Positions 13,105-39,214 of a stretch of DNA of 64,000 nt are shown here, one piece after another (the stretch's first letter is position 1; each line of letters begins with the position of its first letter). The translations under genes were made by a program, and so were the position numbers. The stretch is taken from positions 37,111 to 101,110 of the IMG/VR virus record IMGVR_UViG_3300046474_000370. The stretch is one strand, 5' to 3'. Under the pieces are notes generated by a model that saw nothing but the letters and a program-made list of their open reading frames with translations, did no database searches and had not been told where the DNA came from. This DNA is from a virus.

Positions 13105-13173
13105 ACTGTACTACAACTATAAATTGTGTCACGCAAAAATAAGTTGCGTGCGCAACTAATTGTTGTGTACTAT
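13105..13173. promoter_or_regulatory. OR region: three tandem 19-bp operators, PR and PRM
   Basis: 13111-13129, 13131-13149 and 13150-13168 match ACGCAAC-N5-GTTGCGT; PR is TTGCGT-18-TACTAT; PRM -10 TACAGT on the minus strand. Confidence 0.8.
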
Positions 13174-29526: not shown

Positions 29527-29599
29527 AAAAAAAGCCCGACGCTTGCACGCCGGGCAGGAGTAGTCCAAAAGCCCAGGGCAGGGCTGTTCTTTGCAGAAC
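29527..29599 (-). ncRNA. Candidate ~73-nt sRNA
   Basis: TTGCAT-17-GATACT promoter (29634-29606), GNRA hairpin, second hairpin, CUCCU seed, intrinsic terminator with T7. Confidence 0.6.
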
Positions 29600-30099: not shown

Positions 30100-30455
30100 T
30101 TGGTGGTTCTCCCCGGTTCAATACAGTTGTCCATAATCCAGTGTACGCACAGCAGGTAGCCTTCCTCGCCGAATACCGCGCGCACCGCGCGGCGCCAGTT
30201 GGCCCGGTCCATGCGGTTGCGCACGAGCTTGAGTTCGTCGCCGATCCGCGTGAGCTGGGCCTGATGCGCCCCGATGCGCACGCCGGCCTCGTCGGCTTCG
30301 CGGGTATAGCACCCGTTGCGAAAGGCGTTCAGCGCCGCGATCTCGTCGATCAGCGCGTGGCGCCGCATCACCAGTTCGATTTCGGCCTCGCTATCGGGCA
30401 TACCGTGCAGGCGCTCCCAGAATAGCGCGTCGTCGGCGGCGGCGCGGTGGCTCAT
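30096..30455 (-). CDS. Hypothetical protein
   Basis: 4-bp overlaps with both neighbours. Confidence 0.65.
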   Translation of the reverse strand: MSHRAAADDALFWERLHGMPDSEAEIELVMRRHALIDEIAALNAFRNGCYTREADEAGVRIGAHQAQLTRIGDELKLVRNRMDRANWRRAVRAVFGEEGYLLCVHWIMDNCIEPGRTTK

Positions 30456-30643
30456 GGCGCCCCCTGCTGATCGCGCATGTGCGAGACGACCAGCGGAATG
30501 CGCCGGCGCATGGCGGCCCGGTAACGCAGCACGGCGCGGGCGCGGGCGCTACGGACCCACTTGAGCAGCGCGGGCTTGCCGCGCCGCACCGCCTTGCCTG
30601 CGGCGTGCCCGCAATAACGGCCCTCGCGCTGATTACGACTCAT
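30452..30643 (-). CDS. MSRNxREGxY-family micro-protein 4 (63 aa)
   Basis: Starts MSRNQREGRY. Confidence 0.65.
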   Translation of the reverse strand: MSRNQREGRYCGHAAGKAVRRGKPALLKWVRSARARAVLRYRAAMRRRIPLVVSHMRDQQGAP

Positions 30644-30854
30644 CCGGGCCCACCACGTATCGCCACCGGAGCGCCTTGGCGATGTAGCGCACGCGCGGGC
30701 GGCGCACCGGCAGCGGCTCGCCCGCGCGGCGTGATGCCTCGGCCCAGGCCACACAGTTATCAGGCTGGCCGATGGCGAACAGTGGCCGTGCGCTGCGCAG
30801 GTGGCGGCCCTGACAGGTGCCGATGTAGCGCCCTTCGCGCTGGTTGCGACTCAT
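30633..30854 (-). CDS. MSRNxREGxY-family micro-protein 3 (73 aa)
   Basis: Starts MSRNQREGRY. Confidence 0.65.
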   Translation of the reverse strand: MSRNQREGRYIGTCQGRHLRSARPLFAIGQPDNCVAWAEASRRAGEPLPVRRPRVRYIAKALRWRYVVGPDES

Positions 30855-31078
30855 GGCCCGCTCCCGTGGTCCTCGGGGTGGCAGTAGTCGCTTGGCGCCA
30901 CCTGTTCCTCGGGCAGCACCCACGACGGCGCGCCGCAGAACGCACAGCGAAACGGCGCCACCCCGGTATAGAGCAGCGCAACAGTCAGCGCGGCGACCTG
31001 CTGCTGGACCGCCGCGGGCTGGCACAGCGGCCAGCAGCAGCAGCGCGCGCCGTCCACGCCGCAGCCACACGCGCTCAT
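30851..31078 (-). CDS. Cys-rich small protein
   Basis: CGC, CCC, CAFC, YCH; coupled on both sides. Confidence 0.55.
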   Translation of the reverse strand: MSACGCGVDGARCCCWPLCQPAAVQQQVAALTVALLYTGVAPFRCAFCGAPSWVLPEEQVAPSDYCHPEDHGSGP

Positions 31079-31266
31079 GGTGCGCTCCCGATCAGCCGCA
31101 ACGACTGCCGCGCGGCGGCGCGCCGCAGCCGGTCGTACTCGCGCAATGTGAGGAACATGCCGTTGCCGTAGGGTTGGCGCCGATGGCGGCGCGGCGCGTC
31201 CGGGTTGGTGCCCCAACGGAACTGGCCCGCATACCAGCCCTCGCGTGCGTTGCGGCTCACGGTCAT
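31075..31266 (-). CDS. MSRNxREGxY-family micro-protein 2
   Basis: (MT)VSRNAREGWY. Confidence 0.6.
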   Translation of the reverse strand: MTVSRNAREGWYAGQFRWGTNPDAPRRHRRQPYGNGMFLTLREYDRLRRAAARQSLRLIGSAP

Positions 31267-31496
31267 CAGTACCCCATGTCCAATGCCTGCGCCTGATCGG
31301 CCAGCGCCTGCATGGCCGCCCGCACTGCCTTGCTCAGGTAGCGCGGGCGGCGCACCGGCAGCGGCTCGCCCGCGCGACGCGACGCCTCGGCCCAGGCCAC
31401 GCCGTAGTCGTACCGGATGCGCAGCCAGCGCGGGCCGCGCGTGTGCCTGCCCTGAAAGCGGCCGAGGTAGTAGCCCTCGCGCGCGTTACGGCTCAT
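31266..31496 (-). CDS. MSRNxREGxY-family micro-protein 1 (76 aa)
   Basis: Starts MSRNAREGYY. Confidence 0.65.
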   Translation of the reverse strand: MSRNAREGYYLGRFQGRHTRGPRWLRIRYDYGVAWAEASRRAGEPLPVRRPRYLSKAVRAAMQALADQAQALDMGY

Positions 31497-31723
31497 GGCC
31501 ACACCCGCACGAACGCAGCGCCGCGCACGTAGGTGCGGGCCGACGCGTCGTACACCGCGTTGCCGGGCGCCAGCGCCAGGTAGTTTTGGATGTCGCGCGA
31601 CGCCTGCGGCATCGACAGCCCGAAGTAATCGACAATCGCGCTGCGGTTGACGGTGCCGTAGTGGGCCAGCAGGAATTCGATGAATTGAAAGCGTACCAGC
31701 ACGTTTGGCTTGATGTCGTTCAT
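31493..31723 (-). CDS. Stand-alone CapW/BrxR-like winged-HTH protein
   Basis: RFQFIEFLLAHYGTVNRSAIVDYFGLSMPQASRDIQNYLALAPGNAVYDASARTY resembles the N-terminal wHTH of WYL repressors. Confidence 0.8.
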   Translation of the reverse strand: MNDIKPNVLVRFQFIEFLLAHYGTVNRSAIVDYFGLSMPQASRDIQNYLALAPGNAVYDASARTYVRGAAFVRVWP

Positions 31724-32175
31724 GGTGCCTCCAACAGGCCAACCATGCGTTCCAGCAGGGCCTCGATCTGGCCGAACGCGAACAGCTCGTCAGGACCGCT
31801 GCGGAACGCCTTGTCGCCGTCCAGGTACAGGCCATAGCCACGGTCTGGATGCACCTGCACGCACAGCGGCCCCACGTCGAGCCAGGTCGATTGCAGGTCG
31901 TGTTCGGCCGCGTCCACCAGCACCCGGTGCCCCAGCGTGCGCAGCGCGTGGATCAGGGGCTGGGCCTTGCCCAAGGTCGCGCTTTGGCTCATGCCGCCTC
32001 CAGTGGTCAGCGGCCAGTGGTACGCGCAGGCCGGACGCGCCGGGTCGCCGCCGTTCCAGAGGAAGGACGCGTACGCCTGCCAGGCCGGGTTCGGCACCGT
32101 GCCGCTGGCCGCGTGGCGATAGCAGCCCGTGCGCAGCGGGCAAGTGGTGCTGTTGCACATGGTGATGTCAGGCAC
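31720..32175 (-). CDS. Hypothetical protein (Cys-rich module fused to a second module)
   Basis: DITMC...CPLRTGCYR; internal GGAGG-ATG. Confidence 0.6.
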   Translation of the reverse strand: MPDITMCNSTTCPLRTGCYRHAASGTVPNPAWQAYASFLWNGGDPARPACAYHWPLTTGGGMSQSATLGKAQPLIHALRTLGHRVLVDAAEHDLQSTWLDVGPLCVQVHPDRGYGLYLDGDKAFRSGPDELFAFGQIEALLERMVGLLEAP

Positions 32176-32412: not shown

Positions 32413-32631
32413 CTATGCTGGGGAGTCGTTGTGTGGCGCGACCTCGGTCCAGGCCGCCATGTGCAGCACCTTGCCCTGCGCATCCTTGCAGTACGAGTAC
32501 ATGCCGTCGATGTGGCCGAACCAGTAGACGGTGTCGGCGCCGGCCTCGACCGCGGGCGCGCCGGGCGGGATGTGCACGGTGTCGTCAAGCACCGTGAACA
32601 GGCTGTTGCGGGGGAGTTCGTAGAGTTTCAT
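32413..32631 (-). CDS. Phage hypothetical protein
   Basis: MKLYELPRNS...HIDGMYSYC. Confidence 0.7.
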   Translation of the reverse strand: MKLYELPRNSLFTVLDDTVHIPPGAPAVEAGADTVYWFGHIDGMYSYCKDAQGKVLHMAAWTEVAPHNDSPA

Positions 32632-33113
32632 GGGGCAGGGTTCCAGTCGTGGCACTTGGCGCAGTAGCGCTGTGCGATGTCGTTGTGGTTGTACGAAGTC
32701 AGGCCGCAGCGCGGGCAGGTGATCGACGGATAGCGATGCGTCACCGCGAGAAATGCCGGCGGCAGCACGACGTTCGCGGGGCTGTGCGCGAAGAACGGCG
32801 CGATCTGTTCCGGGCGATAGCCCGCCAGCCCGCAGCCGATCGGGGTGACGCGGAACACCAGCTCGGGGTGGGCCTGGGCGAAGTCGAGAAAGCGCAGCAC
32901 GTAGTAGTGGACCCACTCCAGCGGCAGAGTGCGCAGGCGCGCGTCCTTGGTCGGGATCGCGTAGCTGCGCCCCTGCAAGCCCTCGCCCTGGCCGTAGATC
33001 GCGCCGTGCCAGTGCTGGGCCGCGAGCGCGGCGCCCTTGCCGTGGCGGCCGGCCAGGTTGGACCCGAACACGAAGATGCGGTTGCTCAGGGGCGGGAACG
33101 GGACGTCGTTCAT
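32628..33113 (-). CDS. A1S_2505-like phage non-structural protein with C-terminal Zn finger
   Basis: IFVFGSNLAGRHGKGAA...GQGEGLQGRSYAIPTK...VTPIGCGLAGY; CPRC...CAKCH. Confidence 0.8.
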   Translation of the reverse strand: MNDVPFPPLSNRIFVFGSNLAGRHGKGAALAAQHWHGAIYGQGEGLQGRSYAIPTKDARLRTLPLEWVHYYVLRFLDFAQAHPELVFRVTPIGCGLAGYRPEQIAPFFAHSPANVVLPPAFLAVTHRYPSITCPRCGLTSYNHNDIAQRYCAKCHDWNPAP

Positions 33114-33289
33114 CGCCGGCGCTCCTTCACCTGGTGATACATTGTGTACACCTGCCCCCGGTACAGCCAGAGGCGGACGCAAATGCGCTTGGCGCGGTCG
33201 AAGTCGTAGCCGGCAGCGCAGAACGCACTGGCGCGCCCGTTCGGTGCGTTGGCGCGCCGCGCCAGCCATGGATTGGCGGGCACAATCAT
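33110..33289 (-). CDS. 59-aa hypothetical protein
   Basis: Hand-translated MIVPANPW...; 4-bp overlaps on both sides. Confidence 0.55.
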   Translation of the reverse strand: MIVPANPWLARRANAPNGRASAFCAAGYDFDRAKRICVRLWLYRGQVYTMYHQVKERRR

Positions 33290-33426
33290 GCATCCCGCCA
33301 GATCACCACCAGCCCGATCAGGACCAGCAGCACGCCGTGGCCGGTGTGCGGGGTGACCCCGACGACAAAGGCGCCGAAAGCGCAGACGGCGACGCTGGCG
33401 ATGGCACGGGCGGTGGGGGCGGTCAT
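33286..33426 (-). CDS. Small two-TM membrane protein
   Basis: Coupled, hydrophobic. Confidence 0.5.
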   Translation of the reverse strand: MTAPTARAIASVAVCAFGAFVVGVTPHTGHGVLLVLIGLVVIWRDA

Positions 33427-35671: not shown

Positions 35672-35827
35672 GAGATTTCCACGTACAGGCTTGTTCGTTG
35701 GTAACTACGAGTTGCAATGATACACGCAGGAAAGGCGTTTGTGCGCAAAAGCAAGCCGCGCCAACCGCCCACGCAAGCCCGTGAGGGTGCCGGCCCCATA
35801 AACCGACCCCATCCACGGAGAAACGCC

Positions 35828-36148
35828 ATGCATGCCCATTCCACCGCGCCTAAACACCAGCACACGCACCTGGCCGTGCAAGAGGCCTTGACCCCGCAGG
35901 AGCGCCCGCTGCAAGTGGACGATTCGCTGGAGCAGCTGCAGCGCCAGGTCGAGTTCACCGTCGAGACCGTGCGCGCGCTGATGCGCCGACTGGCGCCGGT
36001 GAGCGTCGACACGCTGGCCGAGGGCGCGGCGCTCGAGGCCCGCCCGTGCAGCAAGGTGCGGCTGGCCGAGCAGATCGACCGTTGCACCGATGACCTGGTG
36101 GTGCTGACCGCCGAAGTACAGGTGGCGGTCAGGGCGCTGCAACTGTAG
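35828..36148 (+). CDS. Hypothetical coiled-coil protein
   Basis: SD GGAG; followed by a terminator. Confidence 0.65.
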   Translation: MHAHSTAPKHQHTHLAVQEALTPQERPLQVDDSLEQLQRQVEFTVETVRALMRRLAPVSVDTLAEGAALEARPCSKVRLAEQIDRCTDDLVVLTAEVQVAVRALQL

Positions 36149-36566: not shown

Positions 36567-39214
36567 GCGAGCCGGTGCAAGCGACCCAAGTGCCCTGGGG
36601 CGGTCCCGATACCGACTGGCTCGGGCTGGCGCGCGACGCCTACCAGGCCTCGTCCAGCTATTTCGACGCCAACGTGCGCAGCCAGATCGAGGCCGACTTG
36701 CGCCAGTCGCAGGGGCAGCACCCGATCGGCTCGAAGTACCTGGCCGACAAGACCCGCTCGCGCCTGTTCCGGCCCAAGACGCGCGCCATGATCCGCAAGA
36801 ACGAGGCGGCCTGCGCCGAGGCGTTCTTTACCACCAACGATGTGGTCGCGATCAAGGCCGAGAACGACAACGACCCGCAGCAGCAGGCCAGCGCGGCGGT
36901 GATCCGCGAGCTGTTGCAGTACCGCCTGACCAAGACCATCCCGTGGTATCTGACGCTGGTCGGCGCGTTCCAGGACGCCCAGACGGTCGGCATAGTGGCG
37001 TCCTACCAGTATTGGGAATACAACCAGGTCAAGGGGATCGACAAGCCGTGCGTGCGCCTGCTGCCGATCGAGAACCTGCGCTTCGACCCGGCCGCCTCAT
37101 GGACCGACCCGGTGGGCACCTCGCCGTATCTGATCGAGCTGATCCCGATGTACGTGGGCCAGGTCAAGGCGCGCATGCGCAACCCGGACCCGAAAACCGG
37201 GGCGCCGCGCTGGCACGAGCTGCCCGACTCGGTGATCCTGACCGCCACCACCACCTACGGCGACACCATCCGCATGCAGCGCGAAGGCCAGCGCACCGAT
37301 TCCAAGTACCAGCAGCAGGCCAACAGCAATTTCAACGTGGTATGGGTCCACAAGGTCATCCTTGAGGTCGACGAGGTCGATTACGTCTACTACACGCTCG
37401 GCTGCGACCACATGCTGAGCGACCCGGTGCCGCTCAGGGAGGTTTATTTCCACGGCCGCCGCCCGTACGTGGTGGGCACCTGCGTGGTCGAGACCCACAA
37501 GATTTACCCGGCCTCGCTGCCGCACCTGACCCACGATGTGCAGGCCGAGATCAACGAGGTGGCCAACCAGCGCATCGACAACGTCAAGCTGGCCCTGAAC
37601 AAGCGCTATTTTGCGCGCCGCAACAAGCAGGTCGACCTGCGCTCGGTGACCCGCAACGTGCCCGGCTCGGTGACCCTGATGCAGGACGTGGACGACGTCA
37701 AGGTGGTCGAGTTCAACGATGTGACCGGCTCCAGCTACAAGGAGCAGGAGGTGCTGAACCTCGACTTCGACGACCTGGCCGGCACCTTCTCGGGCAGTTC
37801 GGTGCAGTCGAACCGCAAGCTGAACGAGACCGTGGGCGGGATGAACCTGCTCAATACGACCGCCAACCAGGTCGCCAACTACCAGCTGCGCACCTTCGTC
37901 GAGACCTGGGTCGAGCCGGTGCTGCGCCAGCTGGTGCTGCTGGAGCAGAACTACGAGACCGACGAGGTGGTGCTGGCCCTGTGCGGGCAGGCCGCCAACC
38001 TGCAGCGCTTTGGCTTCGACGCCGTCACCGACGAGATGCTGATGGCGGAAACCACGCTGTCGGTGAACGTCGGCATGGGCCAGACCAACCCGGCCGAGCA
38101 GGGCAAGCAGTTCATCAACGGCATGACCGCGCTCAAGGAACTGCTGGGCGACGGCACGCTGGTCAAGATGGGCGTCGAGGTGGGCGAGGTGATCAAGGAG
38201 ATCTTCGGCAAGCTCGGCTACAAGGACGGCAGCCGCTTCTTCTCGCAGGACGCGAAGGACGATCCGGCGCGCCAGCAGATGCAGGCCACGATCGACCAGT
38301 TGCAGCAGGCGCTGCAGGCCAAGATGCCGCCGGAACTGCTGGCCGCCACCGTGCGCAAGCTCGATGCCGAGACCAAGTCGACCCAGGCCGAGGCGGTCAA
38401 GCGCGGCGTCGAGTCGTCGTTCAGCGCGATGCAGGGCGCCGAGGTGATCGCCGCGGTGCCGGGGGTGGCGCCGATCGCCGACGAGCTGATGCGCTCGGCC
38501 GGCTACACCGAACCGCAGCCGGCTGGCATCGACCCGAACTTCCCGCAGCCGGGCGGCGCGGCGCCGGGGCTGGGCATCGAGCCGGTGAAGAACCGCCGCA
38601 CCGGGATCGGCTTCCTGCCGGGCGACGCCAGCAGCACGGTGTACCCGCCCAATCCGACGCCGCCGCCGACGCCGGGCATCGGGGTGCGCCAGGGCATCCA
38701 GACCCAGCGCCCGGACAGCATCGCGCAGGCGGCCTTCGCTGACGGCGGGCTGGTGGGCGACGACGACGACGACGACGACAGCGCCCAGGCGGGCGCCGGC
38801 GCGCCGGGCTACGCGGCGGGCGCGAATGGCTACGGCGGGAACCGCAGCCCGGTGCATGACCTGATGGCGCAGAGCATGTTCAAGCTGGCCAACGGCGGCT
38901 TGATCCAGGGACCGGGCAGCGGCACCAGCGATTCGATCGCGGCCGCCGCCGGCGGGTTGCCGCTGGCCGTTTCCAACGGCGAGTACCGGATTCCGGCGGC
39001 GGTGGTGGCCGCGCTCGGGCACGACTTCTTCGAGGCGCTGGTGGCGCAGTTCCATGCGCCGGTCAGCACCGACGGCGCACCGCCGCCAGCGCAGCCGGGC
39101 CAGCCGCCGCTGCCGCTCGAGAACGGCGACTTCATCGTGCCGGCCGATGTGGTGCAGGCGCTTGGGCATGACTTCTTTGACAAGTTAATCGAGAGCTACG
39201 GGGGGGCGGCATGA
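36563..39214 (+). CDS. Portal protein (podovirus/P22-like) with C-terminal extension
   Basis: SRLFRPKTR, RFDPAA, RPYVVG, QAEINEVANQRIDN, ETVGGM; size and position between terL and scaffold. Confidence 0.85.
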   Translation: MSEPVQATQVPWGGPDTDWLGLARDAYQASSSYFDANVRSQIEADLRQSQGQHPIGSKYLADKTRSRLFRPKTRAMIRKNEAACAEAFFTTNDVVAIKAENDNDPQQQASAAVIRELLQYRLTKTIPWYLTLVGAFQDAQTVGIVASYQYWEYNQVKGIDKPCVRLLPIENLRFDPAASWTDPVGTSPYLIELIPMYVGQVKARMRNPDPKTGAPRWHELPDSVILTATTTYGDTIRMQREGQRTDSKYQQQANSNFNVVWVHKVILEVDEVDYVYYTLGCDHMLSDPVPLREVYFHGRRPYVVGTCVVETHKIYPASLPHLTHDVQAEINEVANQRIDNVKLALNKRYFARRNKQVDLRSVTRNVPGSVTLMQDVDDVKVVEFNDVTGSSYKEQEVLNLDFDDLAGTFSGSSVQSNRKLNETVGGMNLLNTTANQVANYQLRTFVETWVEPVLRQLVLLEQNYETDEVVLALCGQAANLQRFGFDAVTDEMLMAETTLSVNVGMGQTNPAEQGKQFINGMTALKELLGDGTLVKMGVEVGEVIKEIFGKLGYKDGSRFFSQDAKDDPARQQMQATIDQLQQALQAKMPPELLAATVRKLDAETKSTQAEAVKRGVESSFSAMQGAEVIAAVPGVAPIADELMRSAGYTEPQPAGIDPNFPQPGGAAPGLGIEPVKNRRTGIGFLPGDASSTVYPPNPTPPPTPGIGVRQGIQTQRPDSIAQAAFADGGLVGDDDDDDDSAQAGAGAPGYAAGANGYGGNRSPVHDLMAQSMFKLANGGLIQGPGSGTSDSIAAAAGGLPLAVSNGEYRIPAAVVAALGHDFFEALVAQFHAPVSTDGAPPPAQPGQPPLPLENGDFIVPADVVQALGHDFFDKLIESYGGAA

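Follow-up and report, generated by a model that had tools for sequence, protein, structure and literature searches.

A free-standing CapW/BrxR-type DNA-binding head in phages, a candidate signal-blind binder of host defence operators

Why would a phage carry the DNA-binding head of a bacterial defence regulator, cut off from the parts that sense the alarm? The question is raised by a 76-aa gene (76 codons; positions 31493-31723, stop codon included, minus strand) in the window, the stretch of 64,000 nucleotides analysed here, which covers positions 37,111 to 101,110 of the IMG/VR virus record IMGVR_UViG_3300046474_000370. Its product resembles the N-terminal winged helix of CapW and BrxR, repressors of a type that governs a large share of regulated anti-phage systems, among them cyclic oligonucleotide-based anti-phage signalling (CBASS) and bacteriophage exclusion (BREX). 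A preliminary description, made from the letters alone, had seen in this gene a CapW/BrxR head devoid of its sensory WYL domain and had proposed a super-repressor of host defence operons. The analyses below confirm the observation in every particular, and binding of host operators is the function that we tentatively prefer. Unless the phage genome is named, coordinates are those of the window; the features of the gene and its operon lie on the minus strand.

The gene is complete and is carried by a phage, as the preliminary description had held. A Shine-Dalgarno sequence GGAGG (31728-31732) precedes the ATG by 4 nt, and the sequence and the open reading frame (ORF) list place ATGA overlaps at both ends, one joining the stop of an upstream 151-aa gene to the start of ours (31720-31723), the other joining our stop to the start of a downstream small gene of MSRNAREG type (31493-31496); these two neighbours occupy 31720-32175 and 31266-31496, respectively. 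The GC content by codon position (GC3 0.87, GC2 0.41) is the coding-frame pattern for a genome of 68% GC. The source record, an IMG/VR virus of 101,110 bp, is rated 100% complete by CheckV, and the runs holding the sequence are rhizosphere metagenomes. The window also encodes a terminase large subunit, for which tblastn retrieves phage terminases; its relatives are only 23-28% identical. The cultured-phage collection contains nothing closely related to the window.

A phmmer search of all Protein Data Bank (PDB) sequences gave exactly five matches, three CapW and two BrxR, and nothing else (E-values 3e-12 for 7tb5, 4.6e-8 for 7tb6, 1.4e-7 for 9c5g, 3.7e-6 for 7qfz and 4.3e-6 for 7t8k), each spanning only residues ~8-92 of CapW/BrxR. 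A profile built from 44 short relatives retrieved the same five sequences at 2.5e-25 to 4e-13 and none other at E<=0.01. Modelled by AlphaFold2 with the alignment of short relatives, the protein folds into a winged helix of three helices and two strands (pLDDT 96.8, pTM 0.86). Foldseek, the comparison with CapW and BrxR that the preliminary description had proposed, places only CapW/BrxR among its top 13 PDB matches (TM-score 0.80-0.94), the next fold being IclR at 0.56; the 12 matches with TM >=0.88 superpose with a root mean square deviation of 0.7-1.1 Å. The fold is shared with BrxR (7T8K, 7T8L, 7QFZ) at TM 0.88-0.94 and with CapW (7TB5, 7TB6, 9C5G) at TM 0.80-0.92, with deviations of 0.7 Å to 7TB5 and 7TB6 and, at TM 0.80, of 2.3 Å to 9C5G. 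Identity to CapW is 35-43% over the solved chains (Foldseek) and 42-54% against full-length relatives in bacterial genomes (tblastn). By sequence and by fold, the 76-aa protein is homologous to the head of CapW/BrxR. No match to it was found in our local copies of Pfam, PHROGs and NCBIfam; PF26109, a model absent from the local Pfam copy, is listed for the whole short family in the precomputed annotation of the protein database, and PADLOC gave only a weak WYL-regulator match (E=0.021).

What is missing can be delimited as well. The alignments reach no further than residues 65-92 of chains that are 291-299 aa long, so that linker helices, WYL and WCX are all absent, and no WYL domain (PF13280) is found in any of the six frames of the 101-kb phage. 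According to the published domain limits, linker included (PMC11662680, PMC9122601), the C-terminus of the phage protein corresponds to residue ~82 of BrxR-Efer, just ahead of the crossover helix 84-94; in Rl CapW it would fall inside the linker, ~10 residues past its start, and this linker conveys the single-stranded (ss) DNA signal to the head (PMC11662680). The match is thus restricted to the N-terminal winged helix, and the protein is WYL-less, stopping at residue 76. With respect to CapW, it has neither linker helices nor the WYL ssDNA sensor nor WCX, hence no known route of dimerisation or induction; the same elements are lacking with respect to BrxR.

The surface that reads DNA is retained. 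In Sm CapW, mutation of R32, S42, Q45 or S47 abolishes DNA binding (PMC9122588), and the alignment gives as their counterparts R27, S37, Q40 and S42, all kept in the phage protein. Q40 and S42 belong to the recognition helix (residues 38-51, M-P-Q-A-S-R-D-I-Q-N-Y..., positions 31571-31612; delimited by phmmer, the AlphaFold2 model and the profile); the codon of S37 lies just before it (31613-31615) and that of R27 further upstream (31643-31645). Ten DNA-contact residues have been named for Acinetobacter BrxR (PMC9122589). Four are identical, R11, S37, Q40 and Y66 being R11, S37, Q40 and Y65 in the phage protein, and K64 is conservatively replaced by R63. The β-hairpin wing (residues 56-67, positions 31523-31558; model, profile and column comparison), directly preceded by the near-invariant P53 and N55, brings Y58, R63 and Y65 into register with BrxR contacts (PMC9122589). 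In the S-R-Q-Q motif of Acinetobacter BrxR, R38 and Q39 read bases; the phage protein has M and P at these positions and therefore belongs to the CapW type and not to that of Acinetobacter BrxR. With CapW it shares the S-x-P-Q-A-S recognition helix and the DNA-binding arginine, and a tail of the form F-x-x-V-F/W-P is also found in Pa CapW. The phage protein very probably binds DNA.

The opposite face tells another story. Comparing 63 short with 25 full-length heads column by column, we found the DNA-contact positions, together with D44, Y48, P53, N55 and Y58, equally conserved in both, and sharp differences at positions 6, 7, 10, 13, 18, 20, 21, 22, 24, 29, 73 and 76. On the non-DNA face of full-length heads, W6 (96%), R18 (84%), W21 (100%) and D29 (80%) are near-invariant. 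In the short family position 21 is never W, R18 gives way to L, M or V, E22 to Y, D29 to A, V or T, and P73 to R. The phage protein carries this signature (L18, H/Q21, Y22, A29, R73) as L18, H21, Y22, A29 and R73. In the AlphaFold2 model the differing positions map to helix 1 and to the first part of helix 2, remote from the recognition helix; within helix 1 itself (residues 6-22, positions 31658-31708, from the model and the column comparison) the short family departs at 6, 7, 10, 13, 18, 20, 21 and 22. In full-length dimers each head packs on the WYL domain and linker of the partner protomer (PMC9122588, PMC11662680). Since the structures put the head against the partner in this way, we infer that the rewritten face is the former regulatory interface, no longer constrained and since settled into another conserved state. 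This face is a second difference from both CapW and BrxR.

Is such a truncated form peculiar to this phage? A search of 1.8 billion representatives, exhaustive and made without a profile, gave 722 matches; the lack of longer relatives in a word-index search was a limit of the index, the exhaustive search having found many. We examined 160 proteins, the best 150 of the 722 matches and ten short clusters found separately. Within this set, 72 have their C-terminus no more than 8 residues from query residue 76, the majority precisely at it, 63 of the 72 are canonical, and 26 proteins run on for at least 170 residues. Members of the short family measure ~70-85 aa and most of the 72 carry a terminal F-x-R-x-W/Y-P, which in our 76-aa protein reads F-V-R-V-W-P. 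At least 63 clusters (50% identity) terminate at the same residue. A WYL domain above the Pfam cut-off was present in all ten full-length relatives tested, eight from the examined set and two from bacterial loci. In a tree of heads only, the 25 full-length proteins form a single cluster (SH-aLRT 89) and the 63 canonical short ones stand outside it, nine atypical, tail-less and fragment-like 'short' entries joining the full-length cluster; this tree of 68 columns is weak and does not prove a single origin of the short family. This family seems to be ancient and to stand as a group apart.

The two forms are distributed very differently. On viral contigs (GC 0.39-0.68), 20 of 21 loci are short with canonical ends, a count drawn from close relatives of four query proteins (ten loci via our protein, eleven via three distant short members) and not an unbiased census. 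Cultured phages contributed CPT_Sonora_088 of Stenotrophomonas phage Sonora and a 110-aa protein of the Yersinia jumbo phage fHe-Yen9-02. In the species-representative genome collection, all 15 matches are full-length proteins of ~290 aa. In 801 evenly sampled proteobacterial genomes (400 Gammaproteobacteria, 401 Alphaproteobacteria), 75 of 77 matches sit in open frames of 272-428 aa and none has the canonical short form, the other two being a non-canonical truncated copy and a fragment. Plasmids gave 259 matching records; among the 40 matches listed all are full-length, most being annotated as WYL-domain or transcriptional regulators and the rest as 'hypothetical protein' or without listed annotation. 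The head-only form is a phage trait, the bacterial genomes searched holding the full-length one. The short family is unannotated: when ten short clusters were looked up, none had an NCBI or UniRef entry, their sources were JGI/IMG, Logan and ENA only, and the sole name in any source was 'hypothetical protein'. Full-text literature searches found no paper on WYL-less phage homologues of CapW/BrxR.

Two records filed as phage depart from this picture in carrying a full-length BrxR/CapW-type gene, an IMG/VR contig (L011) and CAKLQH020000045.1 (L056, 'Acinetobacter phage MD-2021a'). In the latter, the gene is followed by brxA-like (DUF1819), brxB-like (DUF1788) and brxC-like genes and the locus adjoins a transposase; this record may be bacterial or island DNA instead of phage. 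As for gene neighbourhoods, we found no conserved partner gene of the short form, the coupled neighbours varying between phages. Separately, a family of ~76-78-aa proteins starting MIKARAGNVVILG... or MLRARLSNGSFVLG... lies within 1.2 kb of the short gene at seven loci (L004, L005, L007, L008 and L009 among them), corresponding to four to five phage types after merging of near-duplicates, and XRE-type helix-turn-helix (HTH) genes are also found nearby in L003, L008 and L031.

If the head reads DNA as CapW and BrxR do, which sites would it read? Full-length proteins with the most similar heads (51-54% identity) are encoded next to defence genes: a CBASS cyclase and 2TM effector in Stenotrophomonas (L015), a cyclase and patatin effector in Polyangiaceae (L013), an E1-E2/JAB protein in Pseudomonas (L016), brxA and brxC in Fulvimarina (L012) and a UvrD-like helicase in Sphingomonas (L014). 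AT-rich palindromes like those published for CapW/BrxR occur upstream of these genes; the phage gene has neither defence genes beside it nor such palindromes upstream. Comparing helix with operator, for which 51 further host loci were fetched, we observed that S-x-P-Q-A-S helices pair with AAA-N-TA(T/G)...TA-N-TTT sites, for example a perfect ATATAAACTAT...ATAGTTTATAT and the sphingomonad AAAGTAT-GTCCAT-ATACTTT, and S-V-N-Q-A-S-T helices with TAACTnGGC-N2-GCCnAGTTA. A perfect AAANTA-(6-12)-TANTTT lies upstream in 6 of 24 loci with the PQAS helix, against 1 of 41 with other helices, and PQAS is the helix of the phage protein. That helix class predicts the upstream palindrome among full-length genes (L012, L090, L105; L016, L019, L024, L025, L102 and others) amounts to a simple recognition code.

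Helix classes also vary within the short family. Twelve short proteins have [A/S]-T-A-T-R/K-D helices or close variants, resembling the A-A-A-T-R/K-D class that is frequent in gammaproteobacterial full-length regulators. Outside the helix, their mean identity is 0.45 to other short proteins versus 0.31 to the host A-A-A-T-R/K-D class, and 0.45 versus 0.36 with the signature columns left out. As these proteins resemble other members of the short family most, we reject for them an origin by repeated capture from hosts; this type of helix thus evolved in parallel inside the phage family. Read from alignments, such parallelism is a modest pointer in one direction, being the pattern that would be expected if phage heads track host operators.

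The carrier phages themselves seem devoid of cognate sites. We searched six genomes with the short form, ~428 kb in total: the phage of the window, four relatives (heads 64-77% identical), whole or nearly so, and Sonora. No perfect AAANTA, 6-12 bp, TANTTT palindrome was found in them. A weight matrix derived from six host operators, which scores its training sites at 3.4-27.9 (five at >=16.3), gave best palindromic scores of about 4-11 in the five other phages, near those of shuffled controls; the best Sonora score, in a promoter-like intergenic stretch, was 11.4 against a shuffle maximum of 8.2. In the phage of the window the top scores (up to 15.6, shuffle maximum 9.8) all fall inside an array of direct-repeat iterons considered below. 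Inverted repeats with 10-bp arms number 57 in this phage against 26-46 in shuffled controls, none at the operon promoter; no perfect 7-bp-arm inverted repeat is common to four or more of the five phages with related heads, and four are common to three, as in shuffles. The operator model behind these scans comes from few host loci, with palindromes picked by simple rules, and is blind to sites of other specificity.

Palindromes of other kinds were also found. Two perfect 24-bp palindromes 29 bp apart (genome 28003-28026 and 28032-28055, ~9.1 kb before the window start) both contain TTGCACAG-N8-CTGTGCAA and look like operators for some dimeric repressor. Within the window, 13138-13161 is an AT-rich near-palindrome, AATAAGTTGC-GTGC-GCAACTAATT.

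The gene sits in the middle of an accessory operon, amid small phage genes and not beside a promoter. By its ORF layout, this leftward operon (35671 down to 29857) comprises ~17 mostly small, tightly packed genes over ~6 kb, ours being approximately the 10th. The divergent intergenic region 35672-35830 is, from this layout, the probable promoter site, and it holds no CapW-type palindrome or inverted repeat; a terminator-like hairpin followed by a T run (29534-29555, minus strand, read from the sequence) lies downstream of the operon. CapW and BrxR genes differ in this respect also, the phage gene standing in an accessory operon and not divergently from a defence operon, with no palindromic operator nearby.

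We tentatively favour a signal-blind binder of host CapW/BrxR-type operators. Made early from the accessory operon, the free-standing head would read DNA as CapW and BrxR do, having neither the ssDNA-sensing WYL domain nor the linker helices through which the signal travels. It would bind the AT-rich inverted repeats that lie over host defence promoters, and CBASS, BREX and other operons would stay shut, or cease to respond to the host regulator, in spite of the ssDNA alarm raised by infection or prophage induction. DNA binding, occupancy of host operators and repression as the outcome are all three what we infer. A host target is favoured because the reading face is conserved and the short form restricted to phages, because the carrier genomes lack cognate sites and helix classes arose in parallel, because the full-length proteins nearest to it have CBASS, BREX and other defence genes as neighbours, because a lytic carrier infects a species with a characterised CapW-regulated CBASS, and because the benefit to the phage would be clear. 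As to the last point, recent work indicates that induction by CapW/BrxR matters: CapW-dependent induction helps CBASS to block lambda prophage induction (PMC11662680) and, when BREX levels rise, a phage inhibitor that works stoichiometrically is overwhelmed (bioRxiv 10.1101/2025.11.13.688357). The parA and RepL-like genes of our phage, which point to life as a plasmid-prophage, also make such a benefit plausible. That phages of many hosts carry a signal-blind head which holds CBASS and BREX induction off, by mimicking the regulator and not by inhibiting effectors, is a wider proposal that we put forward with a little more reserve.

Several points weigh against this interpretation. The main objection is that the dimer-forming parts are gone, so that the head, as a monomer, may have low affinity for DNA unless some other route to a dimer exists; even full-length dimers bind with dissociation constants of only 0.013-3 µM (PMC9122588, PMC11662680, PMC9122601). 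The preliminary description had entered lost dimerisation as a caveat, and it stands, with linker helices, WYL and WCX all absent. BrxR-Efer, for its part, still binds and represses via a single repeat (PMC9122601). The host target would be deduced from absence, the operator scans having yielded no demonstrated site, and the operator model, taken from few host loci, would miss differing specificities. In addition, basal CBASS expression is enough against lytic lambda without CapW-mediated induction (PMC9122588), and repression cannot clear defence proteins already present. Lastly, the short family looks old and separate, not a series of recent host captures, and this would suit an independent role in the phage just as well. 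Of the super-repressor proposed in the preliminary description, the host target is only indirectly favoured, by the lack of operators in the six phages and by the parallel helix classes, while the repressive function itself stays putative.

Nearly as likely as host-operator binding is regulation of the phage's own genes, the protein switching phage promoters off or on at the early-to-middle transition and sharing no more than ancestry with CapW and BrxR. In general, a small HTH protein from an early operon usually acts on promoters of the phage itself, and this speaks for such a role here, as do the age and diversity of the short family, grouped apart from full-length proteins, and its occurrence without conserved partner gene in early or accessory gene arrays of unrelated phages. 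The short family has also conserved residues of its own on the non-DNA face (R13, L18, Y22, R73), a possible new surface for dimerisation or for a partner. A phage-gene regulator should, however, have its sites in the phage, and no inverted repeat is common to the five phages with closely related heads, nor is there a CapW-type palindrome in the six carrier genomes, negatives of limited weight as the search was crude. Nor does the gene lie beside a promoter, being ~10th of 17 in our operon and deep in a run of small genes in Sonora. Should this role prove right, the family would show where the heads of host regulators share ancestry.

Anti-CRISPR-associated (Aca) proteins offer a further comparison. 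Aca genes encode HTH autorepressors that act on anti-defence operons of phages, and they end short operons with inverted-repeat promoters. Like Aca, our protein is a small phage DNA-binding protein amid accessory or anti-defence genes; unlike them, it is encoded mid-operon (~10th of 17), belongs to another fold family, and the promoter region 35672-35830 shows no such repeats.

Under a host-directed action, the head might also compete without repressing, a weak occupancy of half-sites displacing CapW/BrxR and disturbing expression of the defence operon. The DNA-reading surface, identical in kind to that of the host regulators, would permit it, and brxR deletion in Acinetobacter raises BrxC, is toxic and lowers restriction (PMC9122589). 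We regard this as improbable: higher defence expression should usually harm the phage, and, since CapW/BrxR operators overlap -10 or -35 boxes (PMC9122588, PMC9122589), any bound protein should hinder RNA polymerase.

Less probable again is that the targets are the iterons of the phage itself, bound by an array of monomers for partition or copy control. Seven direct TATAGTT(T/C) repeats with exactly 10-bp spacing lie at genome 35914-35981 (L110:4415-4482), 1129-1196 bases before the window start, within an AT-rich gap of 470 bp that precedes a cassette made up of parA, a gene for a 200-aa protein and a RepL-like one. The unit contains ATAGTTT, the half-site upstream of host regulators with the same PQAS helix (e.g. 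ATAGTTTAT in L025 and L102), and the 10-bp spacing would suit monomers lined along one face of the DNA helix. On the other hand, the iterons occupy the promoter region of the parA / 200-aa adaptor / RepL-like cassette, and this cassette would be expected to encode the cognate binding protein; the array is absent from the four phages with related heads and from Sonora, and the match is AT-rich and was noticed post hoc. Probably these repeats function as centromere or iterons in a plasmid-prophage, a lifestyle to which the parA and RepL-like genes point, and their likeness to the host half-site is probably coincidental.

The preliminary description had also envisaged poisoning of the host regulator, by joining or capping its dimers. 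In full-length dimers a head packs on the WYL domain of the other protomer, so a free head could in principle dock there. This is very unlikely, because every dimer-building element (linker helices, WYL, WCX) is absent and the near-invariant residues W6, R18, W21 and D29 of the non-DNA face are replaced in the short family. The weakest explanation, a pseudogene or annotation artefact remaining after the 3' part of a full-length gene was lost, has in its favour that the protein covers no more than the first quarter of the complete architecture, and is refuted by the 63 clusters ending at the same residue with the F-x-R-x-W/Y-P tail, by the recurrence of the short form in 20 viral loci and a cultured phage, and by a coding-type GC3, a ribosome-binding site, translational coupling and the lack of any WYL trace in the genome.

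Among the carriers, Sonora lends itself to a test of host-operator binding. Its CPT_Sonora_088 (MZ326860.1, 'hypothetical protein') is a 75-aa member of the short family and 54% identical to our protein; it ends at the same point, with F-K-R-V-Y-P, lies in a similar array of small genes and is ~46% identical to the head of S. maltophilia CapW, as counted in a printed alignment. Sonora differs from the phage of the window in being a lytic phage of known host, S. maltophilia, with which it makes a practical cultured pair for direct testing. If the same operators prove to be bound, this would constitute a new counter-defence principle, a transcriptional lock-down by regulator mimicry, and provide a handy signal-blind tool for dissecting defence circuits.

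The operon contains two further sets of genes of interest. Just downstream of the winged-helix gene (30452-31496, minus strand) lie four small paralogous genes, all starting MSRN(A/Q)REG, of which the first is translationally coupled to it; a homologue occurs in the related phage L002, and no Pfam or PHROG family is matched. Upstream, the frame 32628-33293 (minus strand, probable start 33113) encodes a protein of phrog_2072 (E=8e-42), homologues of which occur near the short gene in three other phage types. Its ESM Atlas neighbours, to be taken as leads only (feature score 0.87, TM 0.69-0.78), are clusters described as 'A1S_2505 family phage non-structural' and as macro-domain-like, some being fusions with PARG or ADP-ribosyl-glycohydrolase domains, and this gene is a possible ADP-ribose-processing counter-defence gene.

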